Position numbers and translations under genes: made by a program. From contig JBBTED010000018.1 in NCBI GenBank assembly GCA_038042445.1, positions 1-64,000 of the forward strand: a stretch of DNA of 64,000 nt, written 5' to 3'. Of this stretch, positions 1,002 through 41,887 are shown one piece after another. Source of the stretch: Candidatus Firestoneibacteriota bacterium. Its GTDB lineage: Bacteria > Oederibacteriota > D2-FULL-39-29 > JBBTED01. The notes below the pieces were generated by a model. The model did not search any database. It was not told where the DNA came from and worked only from the letters and a program-made list of their open reading frames with translations. The first letter of the stretch is position 1; every line of letters starts with the position of its first letter.

Positions 1002-2108
1002 ATGGCAAATAAAATTTTAAGGTGGGTCAAAACTATTAATTATCCATCATACGTGATATTTTTTGTTACAGCGAAGTGTAATGCAAATTGCAAGATGTGT
1101 TTTTATAAAGATAATATGATAAAGATGGAAGGCGCTAAAAATGAATTAACAGTAGAAGAGTATGAAAAAATAAGTAAAAGTTTGAAATTGATAAATATAT
1201 TGGGTATTTCAGGAGGAGAGCCATTTTTACGTGATGATTTGTCTGAAATTATAAAAATTCTTTATAAAAACTGTTCTCCATTAGTTGTTGACCTTCCTAC
1301 AAATGGATTTTATACACAAAAAATAGTGTCACAGGTTGAGGATATAGCTAAACATTGCAAGAATATGACTGTTGATGTGCAGCTTTCCATAGATGGTCCA
1401 GAAAAAATACATAATGAAATACGAGGTCTTAAAGATGGATTCAGCAGGCTTAAAGAGACATATAAAGAATTGTCAGAGTTAAAGAAGAAATATAAAAATT
1501 TATATTTAAAAGGGTGCGTGGTTTATTCATCGTATAATCAGAATAGTATTGAAGAACTTTTTGACATACTTAATAAAGATTTTAAAAATTTTGACAGAAT
1601 ATTATTTTCTGTTGCGCATGGTAGTGTTAGTAATGCAGAAGTTTTTAATTTTGACTGGGACAAATATTTTAGGATTTGTGATAAAATTAGAAACACAGCT
1701 GTTGTGAAAAATATTACAGATTTTCATTCTATATTTACTATAGCTTTAAGAATGCTTAAGAATGATAGATTGAAAGAAGTTTTAAAAACAAAAGATATGT
1801 ATAAAAAATGTGGGGCAGGTAAGAGAGTAATAGTTGTTAATGAAACTGGCAAGGTTTTTCCTTGTGAACCATTATGGCAGCCTGTTGGCGATTTAAGAGC
1901 AAATAATTACAATATGGAAGAAATTTTAAACTCAAAAGAAATGAAAGATTTTAAAAAGAATATTATTAAGAAAAAATGCACTTGTCATTGGGGATTGCCT
2001 TTATCAAATACATTGATTTACACACCCAAATATTACCCTAAAATATTGCTTGAAATGTCAAAAATAATTGGTAGAAGTATGTCATCTGAAGGTAGCCGCG
2101 GGCTTTAG
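1002..2108 (+). CDS. Radical SAM protein with SPASM/twitch-type C-terminus
   Basis: CNANCKMC, SGGEP, SIDG, C-terminal CGAG...G.VFPC...CTC. Confidence 0.9.
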   Translation: MANKILRWVKTINYPSYVIFFVTAKCNANCKMCFYKDNMIKMEGAKNELTVEEYEKISKSLKLINILGISGGEPFLRDDLSEIIKILYKNCSPLVVDLPTNGFYTQKIVSQVEDIAKHCKNMTVDVQLSIDGPEKIHNEIRGLKDGFSRLKETYKELSELKKKYKNLYLKGCVVYSSYNQNSIEELFDILNKDFKNFDRILFSVAHGSVSNAEVFNFDWDKYFRICDKIRNTAVVKNITDFHSIFTIALRMLKNDRLKEVLKTKDMYKKCGAGKRVIVVNETGKVFPCEPLWQPVGDLRANNYNMEEILNSKEMKDFKKNIIKKKCTCHWGLPLSNTLIYTPKYYPKILLEMSKIIGRSMSSEGSRGL

Positions 2109-2114
2109 CCCACG
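2092..2114 (+). repeat. GTAG-type REP-like hairpin overlapping the stop codon
   Basis: gtagc-cgcgggc-ttta-gcccacg; GC-rich in AT-rich DNA; supplies the last codons and the TAG at 2106-2108. Confidence 0.65.
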
Positions 2115-2123
2115 TCAATTTAT

Positions 2124-2964: not shown

Positions 2965-4434
2965 ATGAAGGTTTTACTTATCTATCCACAATATCCACAC
3001 AGTAGTGAGTTTGATTCAAGAGCTCCTTCAATGTCATTGGTATATCTTGCTTCTACTCTTGAACGTTATGGCCATACTGTGACTATTTACGATGCATCTT
3101 CAGGACCAATTACTAAAATTGATAAAGTATTTCGTTATGGATTTTCTGAAGAGGATGTCTATGATTTTTTGAAAAGTCAAAGTTTTGATATTGTAGGTAT
3201 AACTTGTTCTTTTACTGCCAGATGGAGATTTGTTGCGAAGATTGTAAACCAAGTAAAAGAAATATATCCTAATGTTCCAGTTGTTGTAGGAGGTTTATTC
3301 CCAACTACAAGTTGGGAATATTGTTTAAATAATTCTAAAGCAATAGATATTATAATGCTTGGTGAAGCAGAGTTGGGTTTTGCAGAAATAGTTAATAGTA
3401 TTTCTAAAGGAGATAGTATTGTTGATGCTTGTAAAAATGTAGATGGTGTGGTTTACAGAAATGCAGATAAAATACTTTGCAATCCTAAAAATAAGTATAA
3501 TGATAAGCTTGATGATTTGCCTTTTCCTGCATGGCATTTAGTTGATTTGAAAAAACAATTTTTGCTACAAAAAAATATCTATGAACTTCCGACACCTTGT
3601 CTCCCTATTTTATCATCAAGAAGTTGTCCCAACAGGTGTAAATTTTGCAATATGTATATCACACATGGTTCTGTCTGGCGTGCTCGTTCTGCAGAAAGTG
3701 TTCTCAATGAATTGGAATATTTAATAAAGAAGTTTAATATTCACAATTATTATTTTGTTGATGATAATTTTAGTATTAATCGTGAAAGGGCAAAAAATAT
3801 TTGTAAAGGTATTATTGCAAGAAAGCTTAATATAAAATATAATTTTCATAATGGGTTAAGTATTAAAACTATAGATGAGGAATTAGTGCAATTGATGAAA
3901 GTGTCCGGTTGTACAAGTGTTTGTTTAGGAATTGAATCAGGGAGCGAACGTATTCGCAATGGAGTGTATGGAAAAAATCTTAGCACTGAAAGAATAATTG
4001 AGGTTTGTGAATTATTTCATAAAGCAAAAATTCCTGCAATTGGATTTTTTATGGTAGGGGCACCGGGTGAGGATAGATCTGATTTTGAAAAGACAAAAGA
4101 GTTGGTAAAAAAACTTCCAATGTGTCTTGCAACTGTTGGTAATTATATGCCATATCCGGGAACTGAACTTTATGATGAATGCAAAGAAAAAGGTTGGCTT
4201 ATTGAAATGTCTCCTGATGATCCAAATAGGGTTGAGATGTTTTCCGCTATGTTAAAAACTCCTGATTTTGGTCCAGAAGATATAGCTAAATGGAAGAAAG
4301 AGTTGTATCTCACTTTTATACGATATCATTGGTGGACTTTGTTTAAAGAGGCATTTCGTCCTTTTGGTGTTGTTAATCTTGATATGATTGGAAAATTCTT
4401 TGGGGTTTTTAAGTTTCATCGCGCAAAACATTAG
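2965..4434 (+). CDS. Cobalamin-binding-domain radical SAM protein
   Basis: N-terminal KVLLIYP...VGIT...VVGG...GEAE; SRSCPNRCKFC; DDNF; GIESGS; PYPGT. Start moved to ATG 2965 after an AGGA element. Confidence 0.9.
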   Translation: MKVLLIYPQYPHSSEFDSRAPSMSLVYLASTLERYGHTVTIYDASSGPITKIDKVFRYGFSEEDVYDFLKSQSFDIVGITCSFTARWRFVAKIVNQVKEIYPNVPVVVGGLFPTTSWEYCLNNSKAIDIIMLGEAELGFAEIVNSISKGDSIVDACKNVDGVVYRNADKILCNPKNKYNDKLDDLPFPAWHLVDLKKQFLLQKNIYELPTPCLPILSSRSCPNRCKFCNMYITHGSVWRARSAESVLNELEYLIKKFNIHNYYFVDDNFSINRERAKNICKGIIARKLNIKYNFHNGLSIKTIDEELVQLMKVSGCTSVCLGIESGSERIRNGVYGKNLSTERIIEVCELFHKAKIPAIGFFMVGAPGEDRSDFEKTKELVKKLPMCLATVGNYMPYPGTELYDECKEKGWLIEMSPDDPNRVEMFSAMLKTPDFGPEDIAKWKKELYLTFIRYHWWTLFKEAFRPFGVVNLDMIGKFFGVFKFHRAKH

Positions 4435-4455: not shown

Positions 4456-5490
4456 ATGAATAAATATATTTCTTATAGTAAGGGAATTATAAAAGGACAT
4501 TTTTTAAATAAGAATATTCCATTAAATATTACACTTTGTGTTACCAATAGATGTAATTTAAGATGTATATATTGCTATGAAGAGTATTATGATAGAAATC
4601 ATAAAGAATTTACAACACAGGAAATATTGAGTCTAATTGATGAGCTTGTTAGTATGGGAACAAAATATATTTCTATAAATGGTGGAGAGCCGCTTTTAAG
4701 AAATGATATTGGAATTATAGTTGATAAAATTAAAGAAAAAAATATACTGTCTCATATTAGCACCAATGGACTTCTTATAAAAAACAACATTTCTGTTGTC
4801 CGAAAATTTAATTCTGTTGCGATAAGTATTGATGGAGGGAAAGAAAGTACAGATAACAATAGGGGTAAAGGAGTTTATGATAAGCTTATTGAAGCTTTTG
4901 AATGTTTGAAAGAAAATAACATTAAATTTCATACACAGACTGTTCTTACTAAGAATAACAAAAATGCAGTTGATGAAATTATGTCTCTTGCTTTAAAATA
5001 TAAATTTGACGCTCAGTTTAGTCCATTACGATGTGAGGATTCTCCATCTAAGAATATAAGTTTGAGTGATGATGAACTAAAAGAAATTACTAAGAAAATC
5101 ATAAAATATAAAAAATCCGGATTACCTATTTTCTATTCAGGGGAAGCATATAAAAATATATTAAATTGGCCATTTTCGTATGATAAACAGATAATTTTGG
5201 ATGAAATACCTAAAAATTATGAAGCTGTAAAATGTTATATAAAAAGATTTGCATGTCATATTGAAGCGAATGGTTTAGTGTATCCTTGCATAGTTTTGGT
5301 TAATAAATTTAAAGCATTGAATTTATTAGAAGTTGGTTTTAAAAAAGCATGGGAAAATTTATTAGATAATAATTGCAAAGCTTGTTATAATGTTTGTTGT
5401 AATGATTTCAATTTGATTTTTGGATTTAATATTAAGGTACTGTTAAATGCAATAAATATTGCTTTGGGTCGTATTTTTCATAAAATATAA
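4456..5490 (+). CDS. Radical SAM protein with SPASM/twitch-type C-terminus
   Basis: CNLRCIYC, GGEPLLR, STNG, SIDG, G.VYPC...CKAC...C. Confidence 0.9.
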   Translation: MNKYISYSKGIIKGHFLNKNIPLNITLCVTNRCNLRCIYCYEEYYDRNHKEFTTQEILSLIDELVSMGTKYISINGGEPLLRNDIGIIVDKIKEKNILSHISTNGLLIKNNISVVRKFNSVAISIDGGKESTDNNRGKGVYDKLIEAFECLKENNIKFHTQTVLTKNNKNAVDEIMSLALKYKFDAQFSPLRCEDSPSKNISLSDDELKEITKKIIKYKKSGLPIFYSGEAYKNILNWPFSYDKQIILDEIPKNYEAVKCYIKRFACHIEANGLVYPCIVLVNKFKALNLLEVGFKKAWENLLDNNCKACYNVCCNDFNLIFGFNIKVLLNAINIALGRIFHKI

Positions 5491-5505: not shown

Positions 5506-6594
5506 ATGAAATATAAAGTAGCAATTGGTAAATATCAGGAGTTTGAGGATGTTCTTAAAAAAATTGGTGGTCTTGAAAAATTTGTAAAGCCTAATGACAA
5601 AGTTTTTATAAAACCAAATTTTTGTGCCACTAAATCTTATGATACAGGAACAGTCACCAATCCTTATTTGATTGAAAAACTACTCATTTTATTAAAAAAG
5701 ATAACAAATAATATTACAATAGGAGAAGGCCCTATTCCTGTTTTTGGTAAATTATCTAAAACAGTGCATCCATTAGTATATGAGATTGCAGAAAAATACA
5801 ATGTTGAAATACTTGATTTGAATTATACAGACAAAGAAACAATAGGGTCATTTGTTGTTGCTAAACCTATATTGGAAGCAGATGTCCTAATAAATATGCC
5901 GGTTTTAAAAACACATGTAAGAACAGGAGTAACAATTTCTCTTAAAAATATGATGGGTGCTGTTCCACTTAGGTTAAAGCATGAAATGCACAAAAATGGA
6001 CTTGATATTAGAATTGTGGAATTGGCAAAAGTTATAAAACCACATTTAAATATTGTTGATGCTACTATATGTCAGGAAGGTGAGGGGCCTACTGCTGGAA
6101 CACCTGTTGGATTGGATTTGGTAATTGCAGGTGATAATCAAGTTGCAGTTGATTCAATGTGTTGTAAAATTATGAAGGTAAATCCACGTATTATTACACA
6201 TATTAGATTAGCAGAAAAAGCAAAATTGGGTTCTATAAGTGATGTAGAATTTATAGGGTTTAAACCTGAATTTGTACACAAGTTCAAACTTGCTTCTATG
6301 TATAAAAATATGTTTATAAGGTTGGGTATGCAGATAGCAGAGGGCTCAATTATACAATTTTTTGAAAGAAATAATGGTATTTTAATCGATAAAAGTAAAT
6401 GTACAAAATGTAATAAGTGTGTCCAAGCATGTCCTGTTACTGCATTGGTTATGTTTGATGAGGGGCCTGTTGTAGAGAATAAAAAATGTATTTTATGCTT
6501 ATGTTGTCATGAAGCATGTTTGAATAAAGCAATAATGATTAAGAAAAAAGGAATTACAGGATCCGGTATAATAAATAGTATGAAAACAAAATAG
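5506..6594 (+). CDS. DUF362-domain protein fused to 2x[4Fe-4S] ferredoxin domain
   Basis: V.IKPN, TNP, INMPVLKTH, LKN.MG, EGEGP..G, D.VAVD; CTKCNKCVQACP and CILCLCCHEAC. Confidence 0.85.
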   Translation: MKYKVAIGKYQEFEDVLKKIGGLEKFVKPNDKVFIKPNFCATKSYDTGTVTNPYLIEKLLILLKKITNNITIGEGPIPVFGKLSKTVHPLVYEIAEKYNVEILDLNYTDKETIGSFVVAKPILEADVLINMPVLKTHVRTGVTISLKNMMGAVPLRLKHEMHKNGLDIRIVELAKVIKPHLNIVDATICQEGEGPTAGTPVGLDLVIAGDNQVAVDSMCCKIMKVNPRIITHIRLAEKAKLGSISDVEFIGFKPEFVHKFKLASMYKNMFIRLGMQIAEGSIIQFFERNNGILIDKSKCTKCNKCVQACPVTALVMFDEGPVVENKKCILCLCCHEACLNKAIMIKKKGITGSGIINSMKTK

Positions 6595-6624: not shown

Positions 6625-7662
6625 ATGTCTAAAATAAAAGATATCGTGAATTTAACGAGGAAGGCGAGATTGTATGCGAGGGTTGGGTTAAAAGGGGTTA
6701 CATTATCAAAGTTTTATGTAATGGTGAGGTATTGGATTTTAACTAATGTGTTTAAGAAAGCAATACCATGGCTTGTGGAATTTTCAGTTACATATAGGTG
6801 TCAATGTAAATGTCCACATTGCTCAGTAGGAGACTACTTGGATAAAGCAAGCAAAAAAGATGAGTTGACTAATGATCAAATAAAAGGTGTTTTAACACAG
6901 ATATCTGAAATGGGAATACCAAAAGTTGATTTTTTTGGTGGGGAACCATTGATTAAAGAAGGTATTGCGGATTTAATTGAGTTTGGTGCAAAAAAAGGAT
7001 TGTATATGTCAGTTACTACTAATGCATGGTTACTTACAAAAGAAAAGACAAAAGAGTTAAAACGCGCAGGTATTAGTTGTATAAATATAAGTTTGGATAG
7101 TACATCTGAAGAACTTCATGATAGGCTTAGGGGTTTGCCCGGGCTTTACAAAAAAGTGTTAGATGGAATACAGTATTGTTATGAAGAAGGTATTCCTTGT
7201 ATAGCATCAACTTATGTAACTAAAAATAGTATAAAAAATTTTGGTACAGGAAAAACAGATGATAGCGCATTAACCCAAATAATTAATTTATCAAAAAAAT
7301 CAAAAGCTTCAGGAATACGAATTCTATTTCCTATACTTTCAGGAAGATGGGAAAAAGATAAAAAGAAAGAGTTTACTGAAGAAGAAAAAAGAATGGTTAT
7401 AGAAAAATTAGATTGTTCTTTTGCTTTTATTGAAGGTGCCTATTCTGTGAAAAAAGGAGAGAAGGTTTGTCAATCTTTATGTGGAAAAATGTTTAATATT
7501 TCTCCTTATGGAGAAGTTCAAATTTGTGTTACTTTCCCAGATAGTTTTGGTGATGTTAAAACTACTCCTTTAACAGATATATTAAAAGGAATGTATAGCC
7601 ATGCGGTTTATCTTAAAAATAAAGATGGCAGATGTTGTGACACTACGGGTTTAATAAGATAA
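6625..7662 (+). CDS. Radical SAM protein with twitch/SPASM-like C-terminus
   Basis: CQCKCPHC, GGEPL, ISLDS...HD.LRG, C...ISPYGEVQIC. Confidence 0.9.
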   Translation: MSKIKDIVNLTRKARLYARVGLKGVTLSKFYVMVRYWILTNVFKKAIPWLVEFSVTYRCQCKCPHCSVGDYLDKASKKDELTNDQIKGVLTQISEMGIPKVDFFGGEPLIKEGIADLIEFGAKKGLYMSVTTNAWLLTKEKTKELKRAGISCINISLDSTSEELHDRLRGLPGLYKKVLDGIQYCYEEGIPCIASTYVTKNSIKNFGTGKTDDSALTQIINLSKKSKASGIRILFPILSGRWEKDKKKEFTEEEKRMVIEKLDCSFAFIEGAYSVKKGEKVCQSLCGKMFNISPYGEVQICVTFPDSFGDVKTTPLTDILKGMYSHAVYLKNKDGRCCDTTGLIR

Positions 7663-7678: not shown

Positions 7679-7751
7679 TGTCACCCTGAACTTGTTTCAG
7701 GGTCTCAAAACACATTGATTTTATAGATGCTGAAATAAATTCAGCATGACA
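7679..7751. repeat. Intergenic double-hairpin element, family B (long form)
   Basis: TGTCACCCTGAACTTGTTTCAGGGTCT...AGATGCTGAAATAAATTCAGCATGACA with TGTCA/TGACA inverted ends; 4 copies in window. Confidence 0.9.
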
Positions 7752-7758
7752 AAAAATA

Positions 7759-9282
7759 ATGAATATTACATTAATACGTCCTCCTGCATATAGTGTGGGT
7801 TTAATGGGTGCACAGCTGGTTCCTTTTCTTGGAATCCTCTATATTTCAGCAGTGGCTAAAAAAAATGGCCATAATGTTGATATTATAGATATGTGTGGAG
7901 AAGATATAAATCACACAGAAATTGTGCATGGCAAATATGTTGCCTATGGTATGCCGTTTTCCAAACTAAATGAACGTTTAAAAAAATCTGATGTAATTGG
8001 TTTTACTTGTACGTTTTCACAGGATTGGGTGTTTAATAAAGAATTAATTCAGTATGTTCGCAAACTTTATCCTGCAAGTATTTTTGTTGCAGGTGGGGAA
8101 CATATTTCTGCGTTGCCAGAATATTGTTTGGAAGATTGTCCGGAATTAAATATTTGTGTTGCTGGTGAAGGAGAAGAAGTATTTGTTAAATTATTAGATG
8201 TATTAGAAAAAAAAGGTGATTTGTCAGAAGTTCCAAGTTTAACTTATCGTGAATCAAACAGTAAAACAATTTGTAATACACCAAGAGGAAACCGTATTAG
8301 AAATATAGATGAAATTCCATTGCCGTCTTGGGACCTTATTCCGTTAGAAAATTATCTTTCAAAAGGATTGAATTATCACATAAAACGAGGTCGCACAATT
8401 CCTATGCTTGCAACACGTGGGTGTCCATATAATTGCACTTTTTGTTCTAATTCTAATATGTGGGGAAATCTTTGGTTTGCGCGTGATGCTAAATTAGTTG
8501 TTGATGAAATGGAGTATTATATCAAGCATTATAACGCAAACAATTTTGTATTCTCTGATCTCACCGCAGTAGTGAACAAAAAAAGCATCATTGATTTATG
8601 CAATGAAATTTTAGCTCGCAAAATTAATATTACATTTCAGCTTCCAACATTGCGAACAGAAGCTTTGGATTATAGTGTATTAAAGTTGATGTTCGATGCT
8701 GGTTGCAGGGAATTAGATTTTGCAATTGAATCTGCTTCTAAAGAGGTATTGAAAAGTGTTAACAAAAAAAATGATCCAGGTAAAATAGTTCAATTAATGA
8801 GAGATGGATTAAATATTGGTATTAACTTGAGCACTAATATAATTATAGGGTTACCAAAAGAAGGGTGGAAAGAATTATTAACAACATATTTTTTAGTTAT
8901 AAAATTAGCTTTTGTTGGGTTACAAGAAGTTAATATTTTTCCTTTTATTCCATATCCGGGCTCAAAATTATTTAAAGATTTTTTAGAGAATAAAAAAATT
9001 GAACTCAATGATGATTATTTTTTAAATCTTTTTGCGTATGCAGATTTAGCAAGAGCAATATCATGGTCTGAAAATTTTAGCCCAAAAGTTTTAAGTTTTA
9101 TGAGAATATTTTTAATGGCTAATTTTTATTGTTTTATGTTTATTTTGCATCCTAAACGTATTGTAAAGTTAATTTTAAATACTATAAAAGGAACTCCAGC
9201 TACAAAATTAGAAGGTGTAGTAAGTAGAGTTATAAAAAACATTAAAATATCGTCATTCTCGCGAAAGCGGGAATCCATTTAA
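7759..9282 (+). CDS. Cobalamin-binding-domain radical SAM protein
   Basis: ITLIRPP, AGGEH, GEGE, TRGCPYNCTFC, IES, PYPGS. Confidence 0.9.
   Translation: MNITLIRPPAYSVGLMGAQLVPFLGILYISAVAKKNGHNVDIIDMCGEDINHTEIVHGKYVAYGMPFSKLNERLKKSDVIGFTCTFSQDWVFNKELIQYVRKLYPASIFVAGGEHISALPEYCLEDCPELNICVAGEGEEVFVKLLDVLEKKGDLSEVPSLTYRESNSKTICNTPRGNRIRNIDEIPLPSWDLIPLENYLSKGLNYHIKRGRTIPMLATRGCPYNCTFCSNSNMWGNLWFARDAKLVVDEMEYYIKHYNANNFVFSDLTAVVNKKSIIDLCNEILARKINITFQLPTLRTEALDYSVLKLMFDAGCRELDFAIESASKEVLKSVNKKNDPGKIVQLMRDGLNIGINLSTNIIIGLPKEGWKELLTTYFLVIKLAFVGLQEVNIFPFIPYPGSKLFKDFLENKKIELNDDYFLNLFAYADLARAISWSENFSPKVLSFMRIFLMANFYCFMFILHPKRIVKLILNTIKGTPATKLEGVVSRVIKNIKISSFSRKRESI
9252..9277 (+). repeat. GTCATTCYCGCGAAAGCGGGAATCCA-type palindromic element forming the CDS C-terminus
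   Basis: gtcattctcgcgaaagcgggaatcca encodes SFSRKRESI; resembles widespread RPE/dRS3-like ATTCCCG...CGGGAAT hairpins; single copy here. Confidence 0.6.
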
Positions 9283-11086: not shown

Positions 11087-11145
11087 TGTCACTCTGAACT
11101 TGTTTCAGGGGCTAAAAGAGATGCTGAAATAAATTCAGCATGACA
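11087..11145. repeat. Intergenic double-hairpin element, family B (short form)
   Basis: tgtcactctgaacttgtttcaggggct-aaaag-agatgctgaaataaattcagcatgaca. Confidence 0.9.
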
Positions 11146-11166
11146 GAACGAGTCAAAAGGAAAGCT

Positions 11167-27365: not shown

Positions 27366-27369
27366 TCTA

Positions 27370-29061: not shown

Positions 29062-29065
29062 AATA

Positions 29066-30898: not shown

Positions 30899-30930
30899 TT
30901 CATATAGATTTTAAATGAGGCAAATCGGAT

Positions 30931-31649: not shown

Positions 31650-31659
31650 AAATTAATAT

Positions 31660-33165: not shown

Positions 33166-33170
33166 ACATT

Positions 33171-34037: not shown

Positions 34038-34055
34038 ATGGAGATATAATATTAT

Positions 34056-35639
34056 ATGGATATACTTTTAATTAATCCTTATTATAGTCAACGCAAAGAA
34101 TATCATTCCTTTATTGTTCCTGCTCCACCATTAGCCCTTTTATATCTTACAGGTTATTTAAGGAAATATAATGTGGATTGTAAAATATGTGAATTTGGAG
34201 TTTTTGATCCAAGCGATGCAATTAATATTGGAGAAAGAGTTAGGTTTGGAATTTCAGATGAAGAGATTAAAAAAATCATTAAAAAAGAAAATCCTAAAAT
34301 AGTCGGCATAACAAGTATGTATTCTATATATTATGCTGATGTAGTTGATATTGCAAAAACTATAAAGAAAATTAACAATGATATTAAGATTGTGCTTGGT
34401 GGTAATCATGCTTCTTCGTATTATCCATATATTTTAAAAAATCAAAATATTGATATAGTAGTTATTGGTGAAGGCGAAAGAGCATTTTTAGATTTATGTA
34501 ATGTTTTGCTCAATAATGGTGCATTAAAAAATATTAAAGGTATAGCCTATAAAGAGAATGGTAATATAATAAAAAATGAACCAGCTGAAGTATTTTCAAA
34601 TTTAGATGAAATACCATTTCCTGCAAGAGATAGTATAGATTTTAAAAAATACATTCCACCTAGACATATGGTTCCATATTTGATGCGTTATCCAGCAGCA
34701 ACTATTATTACAAGTAGAGGATGTCCAGGTAAATGTGTTTATTGTACAGTTAAAGCAGTATGGGGAAGAACTTGGCGAGGAAGAGGTGCTAAAAATGTTG
34801 TTGATGAGATTGAAATGCTTGTCCATGATTATGGTATAAAAGAAATTGTTGTTTTAGATGATAGTGCTAGTATTAATAAGCAAAGATGGAGTGATATATG
34901 TGATGAAATTATTAATAGGAAAATAGATATAAAATGGAGCACACCTAATGGTATAGCACATTGGACTCTTGATAAAAATATACTTGATAAGATGAAAAAA
35001 GCCGGGTGTTATAGGGTTACTTTTGGCATAGAATCAGGTAATGCAGAAACTAGAAAATTTTTGGGTAAGCCGTATAGTCTTCAGCAGGCAAAAGAGATGT
35101 TAAAATATGCCAATAAAATTGGAATGTGGACAATTTGCACCAATATTTTAGGGTTTCCTTATGAAAAAGAAGATTCAATTCGCGACACAATTAATTTTGC
35201 AAAAAAATGCGGGACAGATTTTGCGACATTTTACCTTTTAATTCCACAGCCTACATCTGATGTATACGGTTATTTTAAAAAAGAAAATCTCTTAAATCTT
35301 GATGCTTTTTTTGAAAATGAAAATCCAGATTGGTATGAATTTGAAAAAATTAACTATATTTTGAGTGAAACAGGGACAGATACAATGTTTTTTAAAAAAG
35401 AAGAACTTAGAAGGTTGCAAAAAAATGCTTATCGCTCTTTTATAATATACAGATTTCTATCTTATGCTTTTGTTCCATGGAAAATATTGCATAAATTAAA
35501 TAGCTGGGAGGATTTTCTTTATTGCATGAAATTATTTAAAAATGGAGCATTAATTTTGTTTAGGCTATTAAATCCATTTAAAATAGGAACTGTGCATTTT
35601 TTATACAAAAAAGGCCACGTAAAAAAAGATACCAAATAA
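34056..35639 (+). CDS. Cobalamin-binding-domain radical SAM protein
   Basis: ILLINP, PPLALLYL, LGGNHAS, GEGE, SRGCPGKCVYC, GIESG, GFP.E. Confidence 0.92.
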   Translation: MDILLINPYYSQRKEYHSFIVPAPPLALLYLTGYLRKYNVDCKICEFGVFDPSDAINIGERVRFGISDEEIKKIIKKENPKIVGITSMYSIYYADVVDIAKTIKKINNDIKIVLGGNHASSYYPYILKNQNIDIVVIGEGERAFLDLCNVLLNNGALKNIKGIAYKENGNIIKNEPAEVFSNLDEIPFPARDSIDFKKYIPPRHMVPYLMRYPAATIITSRGCPGKCVYCTVKAVWGRTWRGRGAKNVVDEIEMLVHDYGIKEIVVLDDSASINKQRWSDICDEIINRKIDIKWSTPNGIAHWTLDKNILDKMKKAGCYRVTFGIESGNAETRKFLGKPYSLQQAKEMLKYANKIGMWTICTNILGFPYEKEDSIRDTINFAKKCGTDFATFYLLIPQPTSDVYGYFKKENLLNLDAFFENENPDWYEFEKINYILSETGTDTMFFKKEELRRLQKNAYRSFIIYRFLSYAFVPWKILHKLNSWEDFLYCMKLFKNGALILFRLLNPFKIGTVHFLYKKGHVKKDTK

Positions 35640-35652
35640 TTTAATTTAAAAT

Positions 35653-38600
35653 ATGAAAAATTTGCTTAAAAAAATAAATAGTTATTTTTTTTGTGCATTT
35701 ATTTTTGCAATTTTACTTGCAGCTGTATTATTACCGTATTATTCTAATGGTAATATTATTTTAGGTGGTGAAGGAAATTATGTTTTAGATTTTAATGTGC
35801 TTCTTGGAAAATTAAATTATACCTGGCAAAATTGGGGTGTAGGTTTTCCAGCTACCAGTTCAAATTATAATTATTTTATTGTATTCTTTTTTGCATTTCT
35901 TCAAAAAATAATTCCAGATATTCAAGTTGTAAATTTCATTTTTATATTTATTTTGTATTTTTTGCCATTTTTTTCCGCTTTGTTGGTTTGTCGAGTTTTA
36001 AATTTAAAACCATTCTTGTCATTTTTAATTTCGTATTTCTATGTTGTTAATCCTTTTTCGTTATACTACTTAGGAACATGGGTAAATCATTGGAATTCCT
36101 TAGTTTTGTTTATTATACCACTATATTTCTTTATTATATTTAAATATTATGAAAAAAACAAATTGCTATTTTTATTTTTTGGATTGAATTCTGCGCTTTG
36201 TGCTTTTACAAATGCAAATCCTCCATTGATGGTAGTAAATCAAATTTCTATTATTATATCACTTGTTTTTACTGGTATTTATAAAGACCCGAATTTTTCA
36301 TTTAATAAGTTTGCAAAAAAATATTTTGTTGTTTTAACGTCATTTTTTCTTTTTAATATTTGGTGGATTTTGAACTGGATGAGTGTAATGGTCGATATCC
36401 CACAGATGTATTCTACAGGATTTGCATTAGGATGGGCTGATTCGTTTAAAATTTTTCCTAACCTAATATGGAGAAATTTTACATTTACATCTTTATTCCC
36501 TATTAATTTTTCTGTAGATTTTGTCATAAATTTATACAGTTCTAACTTTAGTTTTTTAATAGTAACAATCCCTATTATAATTGTTATATATTTTGTTATG
36601 AAATATAAATCATATTCTCCAGTTGTTAAATTTCTTCTTGTTTGTATACTTATTACACTATTTTTAATGAAGGGTATATTGCCACCATTTGGATTTATAT
36701 ATAAGTTTATGATTATATATATCCCATTTTTTAGTGTTTTTAAAACTCCAATAGAAAAATGGGGAGTTCTATATCTTTTTCTTTTTATTTTGTTGTTCAT
36801 AATTCTTTTGAAAGATAATGATAAGAAAAAGGAATATAAATTTTTGTTAGGATTATTTTTGTTTTATCTGTCCTATGTGAGTTTTCCTTTTGTAACAAGT
36901 AAATTTATTTCAGACTATAAAATGTTTGATGGTAACATTGCGACACGTAAATATATTGATAAAAAAGAATATAAAGATTTGAGGAAAAACCTTAGTAATG
37001 ATCCAGTTGATTATAGAGTATTTAGTCTCCCTGGAAGTTTAAATTATCAGATAGCACTTACAATGCCCAACGACAAATTTTATACAGGAATGGATCCTGT
37101 TTTAAATAGTATAAACAGACAGTTTATTGCTCAATACAGTAATACTTTAATAAATAACTTTGATGTATTGTACGATAATATTTCAAGTGAAAAATTTTCT
37201 CGTTTATTAGCATTATATAATATTGGTGCAATTGTTTTAAATAGAGATATACTTCCTTGGTTTGGTTTTAAAGAAAAAGAAGAAATGCAGGATTTGGAAA
37301 ATATATTTAATAATGAAAAAATATATAAAAAAGAGCAATTAATTCCAGGAACAGTTTCTTTGTATAAATTACAAAATGAGCATTTTTTGCCTCATATATA
37401 TTCTTCTGCATCGATTGTGCCAATTGTAGGAAAAAATCGTTCTTTGTCATCATTAACTTATACTACTTATCTTGATAGCTATCCTGCAATTGCTTTTACA
37501 TCTCAAGTCTTAGAAAAAGGTAATTTTGAAAAAATCATTAAAGATAATATATTGTTTGTAAATTCACAACTTTCGGATTTAGCACTTGATTTTGTCGATA
37601 AAAATAAATCTTTGCAATTATTGTTGGATGAACAAGGGCAAGCTGAGTTTAAAATAAAACAAAGCGCTATTTATGAAGTATTGGTACAATTTAAAAGTTC
37701 GGTTTCAGATAAAAATGATAAAACATTAATTTTAATAGTTGATAATAATATATTGCCATTACCTGGTAATTGTTTCCAAAATCAGCAATGGATAAGATTT
37801 GAAAGTGTTTCTCTAAATAAAGGAAAACATAGGATCAGAGTATTTTTCAGAAATGACAGAGGAAAAATCGAAAGCATTAAAATAGTTCCCCAAAAAATGA
37901 TGCAACAAATATTGAATGAAACTGATGTATCTTTTAAAAATAATGAGATCCAAACGACCTATTTATTTTATAAAGATGAAACATATTTTCAGGAGCAAAA
38001 TGATAAATATAGATGGAATATTTTAAAACCCAGTAATTATAAAATAAAAATGATACTTTCTCCTAAGGCAGAGTTTATTAAACAAAAAGATACTGAAAAA
38101 GATACATTTTGGCATCTTACAGATTTTAATGAAAATATTTTGAATGCTGATATGCAAAAGCATAAAAGCATTGGAACGAATAGTTCTAATGTGTTTTCTG
38201 AAAATGATGAAAATATACCATTATCTGTAAATCTTGATTGGAATCATAATAATGAGAAGTCTGAAAAAATAATACAGAAATCTTTTAAAAATTTAAAACT
38301 AAACAATTTGCCGTATTTTTCTATGATTTTCAAAAAGGATGATTCAGTAAAAGATGTTGCAATTAAATTTTTTGTAAGTAAATATAAAAATGGATTTTTA
38401 AAGAAAAGTTTTACTTTGGAAAATCAGTATTCGAATCATTTTTTTATATCTTCTACTCAAACTTTTATTGCTGATATTTACAAAGAAGCAGTAAAAGTAT
38501 TGAGATTGCCTGTAGATGCAGACTGTTTTTTGATGAAAATAGAGATTAGCGTAATTCGAGTTAAAAAGGGGGAATATAAGATATTGAGTCCTCACAAGTT

Positions 38601-39684
38601 TGAAATTTATAATGCTGAATTTCATACAGAACTGCCTTTTATAATTGAGAATTCTCCACTTGATGAGAAAAAATTGCAAGGTAAAGGTATTGATACATTA
38701 TCTGAAATTTCGTTCGGCAAAGATAAAATCTTAAAATTGCAGTTAGAAACCAAGTCGTATGTAGATTTAAAAACTGATTCTCAACTTAGAATGATTTTTA
38801 AAAAACCAGAAGAGAAAATAAAAAGTAGAGAAAATTTAAAAAATCTTAGATTGTTACTTGATTTGGATTTTGATGGAGATGGTAAAAGTGACAAAAAGGC
38901 TGAATATGAAGTTCCTATTATGCTTATTCAATCTGATTATGTAATGATTTATTTTGACGTTTATGATGCAGTAAAATCTGAATTTCCCGGTAAAAAAAAT
39001 TATCATTTGAATGCATTAAAAATCTCTAAAAATTCCGATATTGATAAAAAGTGGTATAATACACCAATAGTAGTGAGTCGTACATGGTTAAAAAAGAAAC
39101 TAATTGATTGTAAGGATTGGAATATGAGCGCCCCAATTTTTGAATTAAATAATAAAAAGTATTATTTAAAGAATATGAACATGAAAAAAATGGAAAATGG
39201 AAAATTGTATTTGGAAATTGATTCTATTTATTTTCCAAAAGGGGAACATTTGTTTTCTACAATTGTTAATTCTCAATGGCAAGTGAATTTTGCAGAAATT
39301 GAACCTGTTAGTATAGATGTTGAAAATAAATGGAAAAATAGTGATAATTTGCATTTACCAAAAATCTCTTTTAAAAAGATCAATACTACGAAATATGTTG
39401 TTGATGTTGAGACCAGTAAACCTTGGACATTGGTATTTAGTGAGGCATATCATCCAAAATGGGAAGCATTCATAAATGGTGAAACAGTATCTTCTAAAAA
39501 TCATTTTGTGGTTAATGGATATGCAAATGGATTTTGTATTGACAAAACAGGCAAATATCAAATTGTTATTGAGTATGCAACTCAGAAATATTTTAATATA
39601 GGTTTAATTGTTTCTGCTATTACATTATTAAGTTGTGTTGGCTATTTGGTCGTAAGAAAACGCAGTGGCAAGTTATTGCTATGA
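35653..39684 (+). CDS. Large membrane protein: N-terminal multi-TM (putative GT-C, AftD/YfhO-like), large extracytoplasmic region, C-terminal YfhO-like domain and TM anchor
   Basis: About 420 aa hydrophobic N-terminus (FY..NP, KG..PPFG, F.P.EKW, YRV..LP); C-terminal F.KIN.TKY.V...LVFSEAYHPKW...NGYANG then TM. Confidence 0.6.
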   Translation: MKNLLKKINSYFFCAFIFAILLAAVLLPYYSNGNIILGGEGNYVLDFNVLLGKLNYTWQNWGVGFPATSSNYNYFIVFFFAFLQKIIPDIQVVNFIFIFILYFLPFFSALLVCRVLNLKPFLSFLISYFYVVNPFSLYYLGTWVNHWNSLVLFIIPLYFFIIFKYYEKNKLLFLFFGLNSALCAFTNANPPLMVVNQISIIISLVFTGIYKDPNFSFNKFAKKYFVVLTSFFLFNIWWILNWMSVMVDIPQMYSTGFALGWADSFKIFPNLIWRNFTFTSLFPINFSVDFVINLYSSNFSFLIVTIPIIIVIYFVMKYKSYSPVVKFLLVCILITLFLMKGILPPFGFIYKFMIIYIPFFSVFKTPIEKWGVLYLFLFILLFIILLKDNDKKKEYKFLLGLFLFYLSYVSFPFVTSKFISDYKMFDGNIATRKYIDKKEYKDLRKNLSNDPVDYRVFSLPGSLNYQIALTMPNDKFYTGMDPVLNSINRQFIAQYSNTLINNFDVLYDNISSEKFSRLLALYNIGAIVLNRDILPWFGFKEKEEMQDLENIFNNEKIYKKEQLIPGTVSLYKLQNEHFLPHIYSSASIVPIVGKNRSLSSLTYTTYLDSYPAIAFTSQVLEKGNFEKIIKDNILFVNSQLSDLALDFVDKNKSLQLLLDEQGQAEFKIKQSAIYEVLVQFKSSVSDKNDKTLILIVDNNILPLPGNCFQNQQWIRFESVSLNKGKHRIRVFFRNDRGKIESIKIVPQKMMQQILNETDVSFKNNEIQTTYLFYKDETYFQEQNDKYRWNILKPSNYKIKMILSPKAEFIKQKDTEKDTFWHLTDFNENILNADMQKHKSIGTNSSNVFSENDENIPLSVNLDWNHNNEKSEKIIQKSFKNLKLNNLPYFSMIFKKDDSVKDVAIKFFVSKYKNGFLKKSFTLENQYSNHFFISSTQTFIADIYKEAVKVLRLPVDADCFLMKIEISVIRVKKGEYKILSPHKFEIYNAEFHTELPFIIENSPLDEKKLQGKGIDTLSEISFGKDKILKLQLETKSYVDLKTDSQLRMIFKKPEEKIKSRENLKNLRLLLDLDFDGDGKSDKKAEYEVPIMLIQSDYVMIYFDVYDAVKSEFPGKKNYHLNALKISKNSDIDKKWYNTPIVVSRTWLKKKLIDCKDWNMSAPIFELNNKKYYLKNMNMKKMENGKLYLEIDSIYFPKGEHLFSTIVNSQWQVNFAEIEPVSIDVENKWKNSDNLHLPKISFKKINTTKYVVDVETSKPWTLVFSEAYHPKWEAFINGETVSSKNHFVVNGYANGFCIDKTGKYQIVIEYATQKYFNIGLIVSAITLLSCVGYLVVRKRSGKLLL

Positions 39685-40361
39685 AAAATTTTGATAAAAA
39701 TATTTTTTTAAATGGCAAGTTAATTTATTTATTAATTGCTGACATAATAATTTCCATTTTTTCATGGAGTTTGGCAATTTATTTATATAATATTTTTGGT
39801 GAAAAAACGCTGACTTTTGAAGTTCTGACTAGACATTCTTATATTATTCTAATTGTAAGCGGTGTTTTGGGATATATATTAACATTGGGAGGATTTAGAG
39901 TTGTTTCCTTAAAAAAGATGCAAGATGTTTTTTTGTATAAAAGTAGGATTTTAATTGCTATAATTTTGTATTGTAGTATTATAGTTTTATTTTTTTGTTT
40001 TACACCTCCACATTCTATTAGGGCATGGATAGTTTTACTGGTTTATCTGACATCTATTTCTGTTTTTACTTTTATATGGCATAAATGGGGAAAATATATA
40101 TATCAATTGTTTTGTGTTACTTTCTTGGAACAGGATTTTAAAAGATATGTTCCTCCTATTTTATTTGAAAGATTTCCCAAAGGAAAAGAAAATTCCGGAA
40201 AAATTTTTATTGGAATTTTTATTGTACTGATTTTATTTTGTACATTATTGCTAATGTTTCAAAATAAGGAATTGGCTGATTATGTAGATGATTATGCCTA
40301 TTTTTCATTGGTTATCGGTGTTGGAATAGAATTATATAGGGGTAGAAAACATTCTAAATGA
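39681..40361 (+). CDS. Hypothetical multi-pass membrane protein
   Basis: About 6 hydrophobic segments; ATG 39681 overlaps the previous stop (ATGA). Confidence 0.65.
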   Translation: MKNFDKNIFLNGKLIYLLIADIIISIFSWSLAIYLYNIFGEKTLTFEVLTRHSYIILIVSGVLGYILTLGGFRVVSLKKMQDVFLYKSRILIAIILYCSIIVLFFCFTPPHSIRAWIVLLVYLTSISVFTFIWHKWGKYIYQLFCVTFLEQDFKRYVPPILFERFPKGKENSGKIFIGIFIVLILFCTLLLMFQNKELADYVDDYAYFSLVIGVGIELYRGRKHSK

Positions 40362-41887
40362 TTAAATATTTCTATTTGCCACTTCTATTATTTGTCGTAA
40401 TCGCAATTTTTCAAAAAATTTTTAATAAGTCCAATAGTGTAAATCATAGTTTGTCATCTGCGGAGGCTTTGCAATTACAAAATAAATTATTTTATATATT
40501 GTGTGCATTGTATATTGTTATTTTTGGAGTATTAAGTATTTTGAGATATGTTTCACTGCATAGTACTTTTTGTGATATGGGAATTTTTGAAAACACAATA
40601 TGGAAGATAGCATATAATAAGGATTTTTATTTGATTTCATTTGGACATTTTTGGCCAATTTTACTTGTTTATGCATTAATTTATAAAATATTTTCATCAG
40701 GTATAACTCTTCTTTTGCTTCAGACAATTGCAATTACTGTAGGTGCATATCCACTATATAAAATAGCTCAAAAGCATTTAAAGGGGGTATTCCCAATAGT
40801 AATTGTTTTGTCATACTTCTTGTATTTTGGAGTCGAATATAATAATTTATTTGATTTTCATCCAGACCATCTTTTTATGACACTATTACTTTTCGGGTTT
40901 TATTTTCTGGAAGAAAAAAACATCAAAGGTTTTATGGTTATTTCTGTTTTAGCTTTATTTATTAAGGAGCCTTTGCTTTTGTCCCTTAGTTTGTTTGGTT
41001 TATATGCAGGAATAAAACACAAAAATTACAAAGAAGGGTTTTTTATTTTTGTTATAGCTATACTGTTTTTTATTGTAGTTACGCAAATTACTATACCTTT
41101 TTATTTTAAAGGTAAGTATCCTTTTGCCAGCAGTGCAATTTCTTCTAAATTTAACTTAGGTTTTTTAGAAATTATCAAAAGTGTTATTTTGCATCCATCC
41201 AGTTTGATAGTAGAATTGTTTTCTTGTAAAGAAAAATTAATTTATCTTTTTTGCATATTTGCTCCACTATTGTTTGTTCCATTGCTTTCACCTTTAGCGC
41301 TTTTGCCAACCTTGCCTATGATATTTATAGCTATTTTATCTCAGGCATATAATTATTATTCTTTGCAAAGTCATTATTCTGCAAGTATTATTCCAGGCCT
41401 ATTTGTGGCATTTATTTATGGATTAAAAAAAATAGAAAAAGTAAAATGGCTTGCTGTTTATGTTGTAAGTTTTTCAATATATTTTAATGTGGTATTAAGT
41501 TCTTCTCCTTCGTCATTATTATTCTGGGAAGGTAAGGATTGGATATATTCAAAGAATGCGTATTTGACTACTAATAGAGATAAAATGATAAATGTTGCAA
41601 TAAAAAAATATATTCCTGTGGATTCAAAAATCAGTGTTACTACACAAAATTCAATTAATAGCGGTAAATTAGCTAAAAGGGACAAATATTTATTATTTCC
41701 TCAATCACAAGATTTTAATAAAAGTGATTATGTAATATTAGATTTAAAAAGGGCGCTTTTTGCCGTGGATAGAACTGATGGGGAAAAAATTGTTAATGAT
41801 ATTTTAAAAACACGAAAAATACTTTTTGAAGAAGACGGTTTTTATATTTTGACAAAAAAATGTGGTTTGGTGGAAAAAGATGACTGA
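40358..41887 (+). CDS. DUF2079-like membrane protein (putative GT-C glycosyltransferase)
   Basis: DMGIF..TIW, GHF.PIL, LL.LQ, DFHP, IKE, HYSA..IP; multi-TM. Confidence 0.75.
   Translation: MIKYFYLPLLLFVVIAIFQKIFNKSNSVNHSLSSAEALQLQNKLFYILCALYIVIFGVLSILRYVSLHSTFCDMGIFENTIWKIAYNKDFYLISFGHFWPILLVYALIYKIFSSGITLLLLQTIAITVGAYPLYKIAQKHLKGVFPIVIVLSYFLYFGVEYNNLFDFHPDHLFMTLLLFGFYFLEEKNIKGFMVISVLALFIKEPLLLSLSLFGLYAGIKHKNYKEGFFIFVIAILFFIVVTQITIPFYFKGKYPFASSAISSKFNLGFLEIIKSVILHPSSLIVELFSCKEKLIYLFCIFAPLLFVPLLSPLALLPTLPMIFIAILSQAYNYYSLQSHYSASIIPGLFVAFIYGLKKIEKVKWLAVYVVSFSIYFNVVLSSSPSSLLFWEGKDWIYSKNAYLTTNRDKMINVAIKKYIPVDSKISVTTQNSINSGKLAKRDKYLLFPQSQDFNKSDYVILDLKRALFAVDRTDGEKIVNDILKTRKILFEEDGFYILTKKCGLVEKDD

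Follow-up and report, generated by a model that had tools for sequence, protein, structure and literature searches.

The DNA examined here is a 64-kb window, the first part of a 97-kb contig in a metagenome-assembled genome (2.81 Mb, 181 contigs, 90% complete) of an uncultured groundwater bacterium, and its main feature is a cluster of radical S-adenosylmethionine (rSAM), thiamine diphosphate (ThDP), and sugar-tailoring enzymes at positions 1002-41887. All large open reading frames (ORFs) of the window lie on the plus strand, as do all features described below, with short gaps between them; the G+C content is 0.30-0.33 before approximately 22 kb and 0.26-0.28 thereafter. We scanned the 33 ORFs between 12 and 41887 against Pfam and NCBIfam. 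The locus contains nine rSAM genes, a split transketolase, an E1 alpha/beta pair, a GHMP sugar kinase, a Nudix hydrolase, a DegT-family gene, four genes like short-chain dehydrogenases/reductases (SDR) or Fcl, a methyltransferase, one family 2 glycosyltransferase (GT2), and six polytopic membrane proteins with approximately 10-15 hydrophobic segments each (starting at 23911, 25623, 27355, 29051, 35653, and 40358). The 71 Radical_SAM domain matches in this 2.81-Mb genome predict about one in 40.9 kb, compared with the nine seen. The locus is a real gene cluster and begins close to the contig end, which is also the start of the window.

An earlier annotation made from the letters alone (hereafter, the sequence-only reading) had described these genes as one 41-kb pathway, with the rSAM genes co-oriented with nucleotide-sugar enzymes, a kinase, a Nudix gene, and a methyltransferase. 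The orientation and the assignments were both confirmed, the latter by Pfam. The same reading had recognized no GT4, Wzx, Wzy, or ABC exporter, and in agreement with this none of the 33 ORFs matched the Glycos_transf_1, Polysacc_synt, Wzy, ABC-2, or NTP_transferase families in the Pfam scan. Among these ORFs we found no Wzx, Wzy, Wzm/Wzt, or initiating phosphoglycosyltransferase of the kind expected in a Wzx/Wzy- or ABC-dependent O-antigen or capsule locus; the nearest WecG/TagA gene is at 50340, 8 kb downstream of the locus.

Several genes in 1002-23764 resemble those of GDP-heptose metabolism. The GHMP kinase (17860-18840; Pfam GHMP_kinases_N/C) scored 149 bits against NCBIfam HddA (E = 2e-43; cutoff 600), which suggests a distinct family akin to HddA; this family is very large and conserved at 64-74% identity. 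The SDR gene at 16867-17811 matched PDB 6vo6 with 397 bits (E = 4e-118), residues 5-313 of 314 aligning to residues 3-311 of the chain. We take 6vo6 to be Cj1427, a GDP-heptose C4-dehydrogenase. The DegT-family gene (21510-22700) had the sugar 3-dehydratase E1 (3bcx, 218 bits) and then ColD as its best PDB matches. Its His aligns with His220 of the 3-dehydratase E1 ("yaaHiit" versus "ypaHhit" in 3bcx; a Lys occupies the position in the 3bb8 mutant chain), and its Cys at 215, 217, 220, and 229 are matched in the alignment to the Cys-rich part of the same E1 enzyme. With His at the place of the Schiff-base Lys of DegT aminotransferases, this gene is predicted by alignment to encode a pyridoxamine phosphate (PMP)-dependent 3-dehydratase of the E1/ColD type. 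The chemistry of C4 oxidation by Cj1427 is described in PMC10680097.

The remaining tailoring genes are more varied. The gene at 22835-23764 is a putative Fcl-type GDP-sugar epimerase/4-reductase (NCBIfam, 427 bits versus a cutoff of 500; PDB 7anh, 324 bits, and Escherichia coli Fcl, 309 bits), and the Fcl-like SDR at 12673-13650, a putative epimerase/reductase, is more distant (GDP-fucose synthase, 172 bits versus a cutoff of 500; PDB Fcl, 133 bits). A classical SDR at 11140-11952 is FabG/glucose dehydrogenase-like by Pfam and NCBIfam. The Nudix hydrolase is at 20991-21509 (Pfam NUDIX). A PHP-like metallophosphoesterase (2124-2951) has weak CehA/McbA and PHP_C matches and no PDB match. This gene has no ortholog in 98 other genomes of its own phylum, where only distant partial matches were found, and may be a sugar-phosphate phosphatase standing in for GmhB.

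We fetched 80 metagenome loci around kinase relatives and analyzed the 45 loci of at least 6 kb; these are related to one another and come from contigs of unequal length, and the counts are descriptive rather than a statistical test. An HddC-like guanylyltransferase was present in 25 loci, GmhB in 13, an RmlC-like gene in 12, and GmhA in four. Gene types of the window were also common: Fcl-like (26), cobalamin-binding rSAM (B12-rSAM; 23), DegT-like (20), the 16867 type (14, including relatives of at least 50% identity in 12), transketolase (12), the E1 pair (10), GT2 (four), and relatives of the Nudix gene (two). The HddC-like gene is immediately downstream of the kinase in all five annotated loci. 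No sugar nucleotidyltransferase had been recognized by the sequence-only reading, and this agrees with the Pfam result for the locus; in relatives, the missing enzyme is encoded beside the kinase. The window's own genome carries GmhA-like genes on contigs C150 and C151, and its GmhB-like genes lie on C67 and C74. These comparisons support a GDP-heptose-type substrate and a predicted series of C4 oxidation, C3 deoxygenation, and Fcl-type reduction.

Both ThDP systems named by the sequence-only reading were recovered by Pfam. The split transketolase consists of an N half (9300-10127) and a C half (10124-11065) with Transketolase_N, Transket_pyr, and Transketolase_C domains, and the E1 alpha (18856-19839) and E1 beta (19883-20920) genes match E1_dh, Transket_pyr, and Transketolase_C. 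An E2 gene was absent from all 137 related loci (80 kinase loci and 57 loci of a second cassette, described below). B12-rSAM genes occur in 17 of the 20 kinase loci with a ThDP enzyme, compared with six of the 25 without, and transketolase in one locus and E1 in another occupy the same cassette position (L152 and L148, respectively). These patterns suggest that the ThDP pairs may add two-carbon units to a keto-sugar.

Six of the nine rSAM genes (2965-4434, with the ORF listed also from 2935; 7759-9282; 13655-15211; 15326-16816; 31660-33165; and 34056-35639) had been called cobalamin-binding, and all six belong to class B: an N-terminal B12-binding domain (PF02310, 46-74 bits) precedes the rSAM core (PF04055, 64-102 bits), with all scores over the cutoffs. 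The intact CxxxCxxC noted previously was likewise found, one CX3CX2C motif in each of the nine proteins. None of the six reached the cutoff of a characterized B12-rSAM equivalog (HpnJ, HpnR, BchE, PhpK/Sden_1168, KedN5-type, AprD4, BzaD, and the methyl-coenzyme M reductase methyltransferase). Their best NCBIfam scores were 135-190 bits versus cutoffs of 481-750 (the highest, 190 versus 575), with HpnJ, BchE, PhpK-type, and ApyD as the best sub-threshold models, and no rSAM protein of the locus reached any NCBIfam equivalog cutoff. The best score of 2965 was 170 bits versus 575. The product of 15326, the member that travels with the kinase cassette, had AprD4 as its best PDB match (E = 3e-11), and relatives at 28-40% identity occur in 17 of the 45 kinase loci.

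The other three rSAM genes had been assigned to the SPASM/twitch type. The Radical_SAM domain is present in all of them, and SPASM (PF13186, cutoff 21.5) in the products of 1002-2108 (26.4 bits; CX3CX2C at 26) and 6625-7662 (21.9 bits), but 4456-5490 has no SPASM match and instead carries a C-terminal Cys cluster (307, 310, 314, and 315). A 41% paralog of the latter is on contig C2, and 32% relatives are upstream of the second cassette in L007 and L008. PDB searches with these three proteins gave generic rSAM matches only; the best match of 6625 was the cytosylglucuronate decarboxylase BlsE (E = 9e-12), and 1002 and 6625 weakly matched the lipid enzyme GDGT-MAS. A DUF362 domain fused to a 2x[4Fe-4S] ferredoxin (5506-6594; Pfam DUF362 and Fer4 families) is a candidate electron donor for the rSAM enzymes.

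The only GT2 gene (12000-12683) was listed as an ORF from TTG at 11964, and its true start is probably the ATG at 12000. Seven of its eight PDB matches are DPMS, ArnC, or GtrB, in keeping with the DPM1-like type that had been proposed for it, and the four best of seven NCBIfam matches are AglJ (112 bits versus a cutoff of 325), a dolichyl-phosphate hexose transferase (85 bits), PgfS, and ArnC, all below cutoff. Relatives in the kinase loci share 52-58% identity. This supports a putative polyprenyl-phosphate-type GT2.

A search with the PHP-like protein in 121 genomes of the phylum Omnitrophota, to which locus L007 also belongs, returned one clear ortholog (62% identity), in genome G172. This genome retains 19 genes of the window's 1002-23764 region; their arrangement is almost unchanged, and they share 52-78% identity. 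The order is a GT2 (54%), 16867 (70%), a PMT_2 family GT-C of 585 aa (31 bits versus a cutoff of 26.1), the kinase (63%), HddC, 1002 (73%), 2124 (61%, in the same position as in the window), 5506 (67%), 6625 (63%), 7759 (67%), the transketolase N (75%) and C (67%) halves, 11140 (78%), the GT2 ortholog (68%), 12673 (73%), 13655 (72%), 15326 (66%), Fcl (52%), E1 alpha (57%), E1 beta (67%), and DegT (69%). No counterparts of 2935, 4456, or the Nudix gene were found there; 2935, the ORF of the 2965 gene, has only 24-28% matches in G172. The block adjoins genes for Wzi, a Wza-like protein, Gmd, and UDP-glucose dehydrogenase. This synteny shows that the GT2 belongs with the heptose enzymes, the two ThDP pairs, the ferredoxin, and the upstream rSAM genes. 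Since the 99 genomes of the phylum to which the window belongs do not include G172, the block has probably moved between phyla.

Following the block in G172 (C2:77747-93930; L158 and L159), we observed a second set of genes: a HemN-like rSAM, two B12-rSAMs, a class I/II aminotransferase, an HMGL-like enzyme, a shortened E1 alpha/beta-like pair, two further B12-rSAMs, a second DPMS-like GT2, and polytopic proteins of 772 and 508 aa without a Pfam family.

Downstream of the block in the window are four tandem paralogs (23911-25602, 25623-27365, 27355-29061, and 29051-30778) with 58-76% mutual identity. One of them has a weak PMT_2 match (E = 0.004). An AlphaFold model of a paralog (predicted local distance difference test, pLDDT, of 68) retrieved GT-C glycosyltransferases at Foldseek ranks 1-23 and 25-30 (STT3, ArnT, ALG9/12, AglB, PglB, AftA, Emb, and DPY19; E down to 1e-5), and rank 24 was the GT-C-fold PIG-U subunit. 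The 40 best VIA rows were also all of GT-C fold (Z of 5.8-10.7; Z under approximately 13 is common for helical bundles). On this structural basis, we place the paralogs in the GT-C superfamily as predicted members. All six aligned sequences carry an acidic residue, Asp or Glu, at position 42, which may correspond to the conserved acidic residue expected in the first external loop of GT-C enzymes.

These paralogs have a very narrow distribution. Among 1.84 billion representatives, an exhaustive profile search detected 11 relatives, of which two are near full length. The family was not found in 40 genomes of the class and phylum, two collection scans confirmed no relative, and a word-index search with one paralog returned the window's own copies only. 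Profile-profile comparison linked the paralogs neither to the AftD-like family nor to DUF2079, both described below, and likewise gave no link between these two. The four genes thus appear nearly exclusive to this lineage. Their tails (25501-25599, 27264-27362, 28960-29058, and 30677-30775) are invariant at 31 of the 33 final residues, although their DNA shows 7-12 differences per 99 positions, most of them at third codon sites. This pattern points to purifying selection rather than recent gene conversion, and the tail perhaps serves a shared partner or acts as a sorting signal.

A remnant of a fifth paralog is located at 31596-31646. Found by profile match, it reads KRSFHGTSLKLYCINGI followed by a stop and represents the last 17 codons. 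Between the fourth paralog and this remnant is an MNT-like nucleotidyltransferase (Pfam NTP_transf_2) with a gene split in two frames (30931-31585 in all; ORFs 31245-31415 and 31412-31585), which appears HEPN-like from a reading of the two ORFs rather than from a family match. The MNT/HEPN pair replaced most of the fifth paralog and is an insertion outside the pathway. Contig pieces of run X1 tile 22001-42000 with even depth (8.7-10.7) and no differences, and one piece bridges 30727-33484. These pieces break at hairpins like repetitive extragenic palindromes (REP) at 22748-22773 and 23800-23832, neither of which is bridged.

The region after the insertion (31660-41887) has a different distribution. 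Its first B12-rSAM (31660) is followed by an S-adenosylmethionine (SAM)-dependent methyltransferase (33162-34037; Pfam Methyltransf_23/11) with an N-terminal CxxC...CxxC arrangement (Cys 6, 9, 39, and 42) and by the anchor B12-rSAM (34056). Relatives of the latter at 52-67% identity number 119 others among the matches listed, and we fetched 57 loci around such relatives. Orthologs of 31660 (49-63%) are beside those of 34056 in L006-L009, L015, L031, and L034, methyltransferase orthologs (36-48%) are in the same cassette, and further B12-rSAMs are often nearby. ORFs that are 30-43% identical to residues 1-600 of the next gene product in the window follow directly downstream in L006, L007, L008, L009, L014, L015, L016, L023, and L025. 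The surroundings include GT4, GT2, Gmd, Fcl, DegT, Wzx, an acetolactate-synthase-type ThDP enzyme, DUF2079, and a GT-C_AftD protein. By homology, 31660-37500 (rSAM, methyltransferase, rSAM, and AftD-like GT-C) appears to be a cassette found in many phyla.

The protein of 1343 aa encoded at 35653-39684 has hydrophobic segments within 4-415 and at 1316-1334 and no Pfam family match itself. The model of residues 1-620 (pLDDT of 71.7, pTM of 0.79) had mycobacterial AftD (6w98) as its best Foldseek match (E = 8.6e-7, TMq of 0.54), followed by other GT-C proteins; the family has an invariant LGGEG loop after the first helix, which contains the invariant Glu40, and a related ORF in L019 scored 37.7 bits against Pfam GT-C_AftD (cutoff 26). 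With a GT-C module, a large external region, and a C-terminal transmembrane helix, it is predicted to be an AftD-like GT-C. Next is a small membrane protein of 242 aa (39633-40361) with approximately five to six hydrophobic segments, no Pfam family, and only below-threshold atlas matches; speculatively, it is a candidate flippase or accessory subunit. The last gene (40358-41887) encodes a polytopic DUF2079 protein (PF09852, 198 bits versus a cutoff of 28.2; atlas 0.99 to DUF2079 clusters, a result that bears on the family and not on the fold), and a DUF2079 ORF is also beside the second cassette in L019. DUF2079 is presumably a member of the GT-C clan; our literature search for a link between the two gave nothing useful. 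For the six putative GT-C proteins of the sequence-only reading, the models thus agree for the four paralogs and the AftD-like protein.

Taken together, the locus appears modular, with a conserved block, an independently distributed cassette, and lineage-specific GT-C genes. Co-occurrence of the genes in other genomes, which the sequence-only reading had anticipated, was found for the 19 genes in G172, for subsets in many kinase loci, and for the 31660-37500 cassette in at least nine loci. Its single 41-kb pathway held for 1002-23764 as a conserved unit but not for the 31660-37500 cassette, which is distributed independently. Because the kinase was not found in any of the five tested genomes that carry the cassette, the cassette works without the heptose block.

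We consider it moderately probable that this is a composite locus of three parts for decoration of cell-envelope glycans, with a block that tailors a GDP-heptose-type sugar. In the first part (1002-23764), the HddA-like kinase together with GmhA, GmhB, and a guanylyltransferase encoded elsewhere in the genome would produce a nucleotide heptose. The Cj1427-like SDR would then oxidize C4, the PMP enzyme of the E1/ColD type would remove the 3-hydroxyl, the split transketolase and the E1 alpha/beta pair would attach two-carbon units to the keto-sugar, and the Fcl-like and SDR enzymes would epimerize and reduce it. Seven rSAM enzymes, probably fed by the DUF362-ferredoxin, may carry out radical chemistry such as C-methylation. 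The GT2 would load the finished sugar on polyprenyl phosphate, and after flipping, GT-C enzymes would transfer it to acceptors outside the cytoplasmic membrane. The second part (23911-30778) would provide the four GT-C paralogs, probably one per acceptor or linkage. In the third part (31660-41887), the two rSAMs, the methyltransferase, the AftD-like GT-C, the small membrane protein, and DUF2079 would add a second radical or methyl modification and transfer. We infer the order of substrates, the C2 branching, the role of each rSAM, the lipid carrier, and the acceptors from these similarities; the rSAM enzymes may methylate or rearrange unactivated carbons, and the paralogs may serve different acceptors. 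The deoxy, branched, and C-methylated sugar of the sequence-only reading is therefore matched by our data at the 3-deoxygenation, as predicted from sequence, while its branching and C-methylation would follow from the proposed mechanism.

Several observations weigh against such a pathway. A nucleotidyltransferase, GmhA, and GmhB were not found among the 33 ORFs of the locus, the best HddC-like genes of the genome reach only 31-34% identity, and no Gmd was found in the genome. The kinase, the GT2, and all rSAMs are far under the NCBIfam equivalog cutoffs. The GT2 has no transmembrane helix, including at its C-terminus, and a GtrA-type flippase (PF04138) was not found in the genome, which leaves the three-component Gtr arrangement incomplete. 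The GT-C models are of intermediate confidence, with pLDDT of 68 and 72 and TM-scores of 0.3-0.54 (paralogs and AftD-like protein). The junction between 22835 and the first paralog crosses a genome-wide REP-like repeat (107 genome copies), and because the X1 pieces break at the hairpins of this stretch, the adjacency of the two genes rests on the original assembly. Profile-profile comparisons found the membrane proteins of G172 to be unrelated in sequence to those of the window, so the pairing of the block with these GT-C genes is seen only here. The kinase result in the five cassette genomes also means that the first and third parts need not share a product.

This last point leads to a reading that we regard as rather unlikely, namely, that adjacent but separate modules are involved. 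Here the GDP-sugar made by 1002-23764 would be used by cytoplasmic glycosyltransferases encoded elsewhere, in an ordinary Wzx/Wzy or ABC route, and the GT-C genes with 31660-41887 would use another lipid-linked donor to decorate another target. The independent distribution of the cassettes fits it, with no ortholog-grade match to 31660 or 34056 in the 45 kinase loci, as do the fall in G+C content after 22 kb and the toxin-antitoxin insertion and paralog remnant that mark the junction. So do the KpsM-like or GT4 genes in related kinase loci, the Wzx and GT4 genes in loci akin to the second cassette, and the Wzx-like genes elsewhere in the window's genome. However, the window and G172 each hold a DPMS-like GT2 within the block, that of G172 also has a PMT_2 GT-C, and in L127 the GT2 is beside a DUF2079-like ORF. 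Moreover, all genes are co-oriented with short gaps, and the fifth paralog once directly abutted 31660. The ThDP enzymes could also be mere metabolic helpers, the transketolase giving sedoheptulose 7-phosphate and E1 being an ordinary part of a 2-oxoacid dehydrogenase, with no branch or extension of the sugar, whose changes would be limited to deoxygenation, epimerization, and perhaps methylation. This is improbable in our view, and it can overlap with the tailoring pathway above. It draws on L085, where GmhA and the kinase follow two genes downstream of a transketolase pair, a B12-rSAM lying between them, and on several other split transketolase and E1 sets in the genome, one with its own E2 on C72. 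Against it, transketolase and E1 interchange at one cassette position although E1 cannot supply sedoheptulose 7-phosphate, E2 is missing from the related loci, the ThDP genes associate with B12-rSAMs, and both the window and G172 retain both pairs within the block.

A product outside the envelope glycans is very improbable. It could be a tailored lipid (a hopanoid or an ether lipid), a metabolite akin to aminoglycosides, or a modified peptide, as the names of the best sub-threshold NCBIfam models and the weak likenesses of 15326 to AprD4 and of 1002 and 6625 to GDGT-MAS could hint. All scores to characterized rSAM families are far under cutoff, including those for HpnJ, HpnH, HpnR, and HpnA, and no squalene-hopene cyclase (PF13243) was found in this 90%-complete genome. 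The expectation that the set would not map one-to-one onto a known pathway such as hopanoid tailoring is thus upheld. In addition, no precursor-sized ORF or peptide-maturation gene was found in the Pfam scan or in the gaps read, and every close context consists of nucleotide-sugar or glycan genes.

Within the favored reading of a composite glycan-decoration locus, 1002-23764 may make a heptose derivative of nine or more carbons that is 3-deoxy, doubly C2-extended or branched, and multiply C-methylated, displayed via the near-lineage-specific GT-C family. Such a product would require two ThDP ligations and up to seven rSAM steps on GDP- or polyprenyl-phosphate-linked intermediates; we propose it tentatively and hold it to be possible but doubtful. 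To our knowledge, this class of higher-carbon, branched, C-methylated heptoses has never been described. Our literature search, which left subscription journals mostly uncovered, gave no description of B12-rSAM enzymes in combination with O-antigen, GT-C, heptose, or HddA/HddC pathways, and a preprint on Omnitrophota has no bearing on such a cassette. Synteny places five further rSAM genes in the block, and this would be its largest version by sequence comparison. The window further adds the co-presence of the two ThDP systems, a DPMS-like GT2 within the block, and a connection to GT-C transferases, among them a family of four genes that is nearly unique.

Enzymes of the rSAM and thiamine types are established tailors of antibiotic sugars. 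We know of no case in which they tailor primary bacterial surface glycans, nor of a sugar pathway in which a mix of nine rSAM and two thiamine enzymes has been studied. The block shares its first steps with the Campylobacter heptose pathway, so its substrate can be guessed and made, and in vitro tests of nine unassigned rSAMs and two unusual C-C bond-forming enzymes become possible. Both cassettes have representatives in numerous uncultured phyla, including Omnitrophota, Planctomycetes, Verrucomicrobia, Patescibacteria, and some archaea, and their chemistry, once known, would explain part of the envelope make-up of groundwater microbes and could supply biocatalysts for C-methylation and chain extension of sugars. 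If the higher-carbon product exists, it would, together with the second cassette, make rSAM tailoring of primary envelope glycans a widespread feature of uncultured anaerobes that has been overlooked. How acceptors are chosen is a separate, small puzzle posed by the four near-unique GT-C paralogs and their conserved tail.

Other gene clusters rich in rSAM or ThDP genes were observed in the same genome. Contig C2 (1500-17200) has seven rSAM genes in approximately 14 kb with GT2 genes, on C1 (21900-33400) Wzx, GT2, GT9, and short E1-like ORFs accompany B12-rSAM genes, and C72 (14400-18500) has another glycan cluster of this kind. On C96 (23600-35000) there is a yersiniose-like set that includes an HMGL-like aldolase and a ThDP enzyme of the acetolactate-synthase type, and C151 has a B12-rSAM, a split transketolase, and its GmhA-like gene. 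The 2.2-kb contig C31 (L068, 1-2217) carries diverged copies of the 16867 C-terminal part (68% identity) and, approximately 1.7 kb away, of the 22835 N-terminus (61%); it may represent a second variant cassette or a strain variant in which the gene order differs.

The locus is flanked by genes of other functions. Upstream, 12-872 encodes a PorV/PorP-like outer-membrane protein (Pfam PorP_SprF/TraF_2), probably outside the glycan locus. Its paralogs on C96, C116, and C160 share 78-87% identity, and those on C96 and C160 are downstream of large CarboxypepD_reg surface proteins, so that this gene is probably the tail of a preceding surface-protein operon. A related outer-membrane protein-like gene and a protein of more than 1155 aa are at the window end (59095-63998). 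After the locus, 42033-49260 holds a mannose-type phosphotransferase system (IIA, IIB, IIC, and IID), a GH57 amylase/4-alpha-glucanotransferase, and Enzyme I. Further downstream (49288-53601, 8-12 kb away) are a PGI/PMI-type SIS isomerase, the WecG/TagA glycosyltransferase, MetK (SAM synthetase), and AhcY (S-adenosylhomocysteine hydrolase); the closeness of MetK and AhcY to a SAM-consuming locus could be a supply link or a coincidence. The top sigma-70-like site of the promoter scan (12 of 12 matches, 41932-41960) fits a new transcription unit after 41887. Overall, the promoter and terminator scans found sites no more numerous than in shuffled sequence.

Two kinds of hairpin repeats resembling REP or miniature inverted-repeat transposable elements are present, at 7690-7752, 11090-11146, 15245-15307, and 22725-22798 and also at 30-45, 11965-11980, 16818-16833, and 23784-23799. 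One is a composite two-hairpin unit of approximately 55-75 nt with terminal ATGCTGAAATAAATTCAGCAT and 54 genome copies, and the other is a TGCCGATTTATCGGC hairpin, the repeat with 107 copies. The copies in the locus are mostly in intergenic gaps and always in the plus orientation. We considered these hairpins as locus-specific signals and rejected this idea, both being genome-wide repeats.

Among known systems, the closest likeness is to the capsular GDP-heptose pathway of Campylobacter jejuni. The locus shares with it an HddA-like kinase, a 6vo6 homologue, a PMP-type 3-dehydratase, and Fcl-type reductases; HddC, GmhA, GmhB, and RmlC-like genes are present in relatives, and HddC, GmhA, and GmhB are not in the window's copy. 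The C. jejuni pathway, according to the passages of PMC10680097 consulted, comprises HddA/GmhB/HddC, Cj1427, a C3-dehydratase, C3/C5-epimerases, and C4-reductases, and its scheme there includes no rSAM or ThDP enzyme. In contrast, the conserved block studied here holds seven rSAM genes and two ThDP pairs, and in place of ABC export of a capsule, a GT2 and GT-C enzymes would be used.

For the ThDP enzymes, YerE (yersiniose) and the E1 alpha/beta-like AviB1/AviB2 (avilamycin) reportedly catalyze two-carbon branching of keto-sugars. The likeness includes a ThDP enzyme in a deoxysugar cluster near a 3-dehydratase and an E1-type pair without E2, whereas our locus has two ThDP systems and probably acts on a GDP-heptose rather than a CDP- or dTDP-hexose. 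Class B rSAM sugar enzymes include the cobalamin-dependent C-methyltransferases GenK, GenD1, and Fom3 and the rSAM diol-dehydratase AprD4. The B12-rSAMs of the locus share their B12-binding domain and CX3CX2C core and their position beside sugar-tailoring genes, but reach no curated cutoff for the characterized families, and they would act not on antibiotics but on nucleotide- or lipid-linked derivatives of heptose that belong to primary envelope glycans.

Lipid-linked glycan decoration by a GT2 and a GT-C is represented by GtrA/B/C, ArnC/ArnT, CsbB/YfhO, and mycobacterial Ppm1 or decaprenylphosphoryl arabinose with Aft/Emb. Our locus resembles these systems in its DPMS/ArnC/GtrB-like GT2 and in predicted GT-C-fold proteins that include an AftD-like one with a large external region, and it resembles mycobacteria in having several GT-C genes per carrier system. 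It differs in that no GtrA-type flippase accompanies the GT2, which itself lacks transmembrane helices, that its paralog family has 11 detectable relatives, and that the donor sugar would come from an rSAM-rich pathway.

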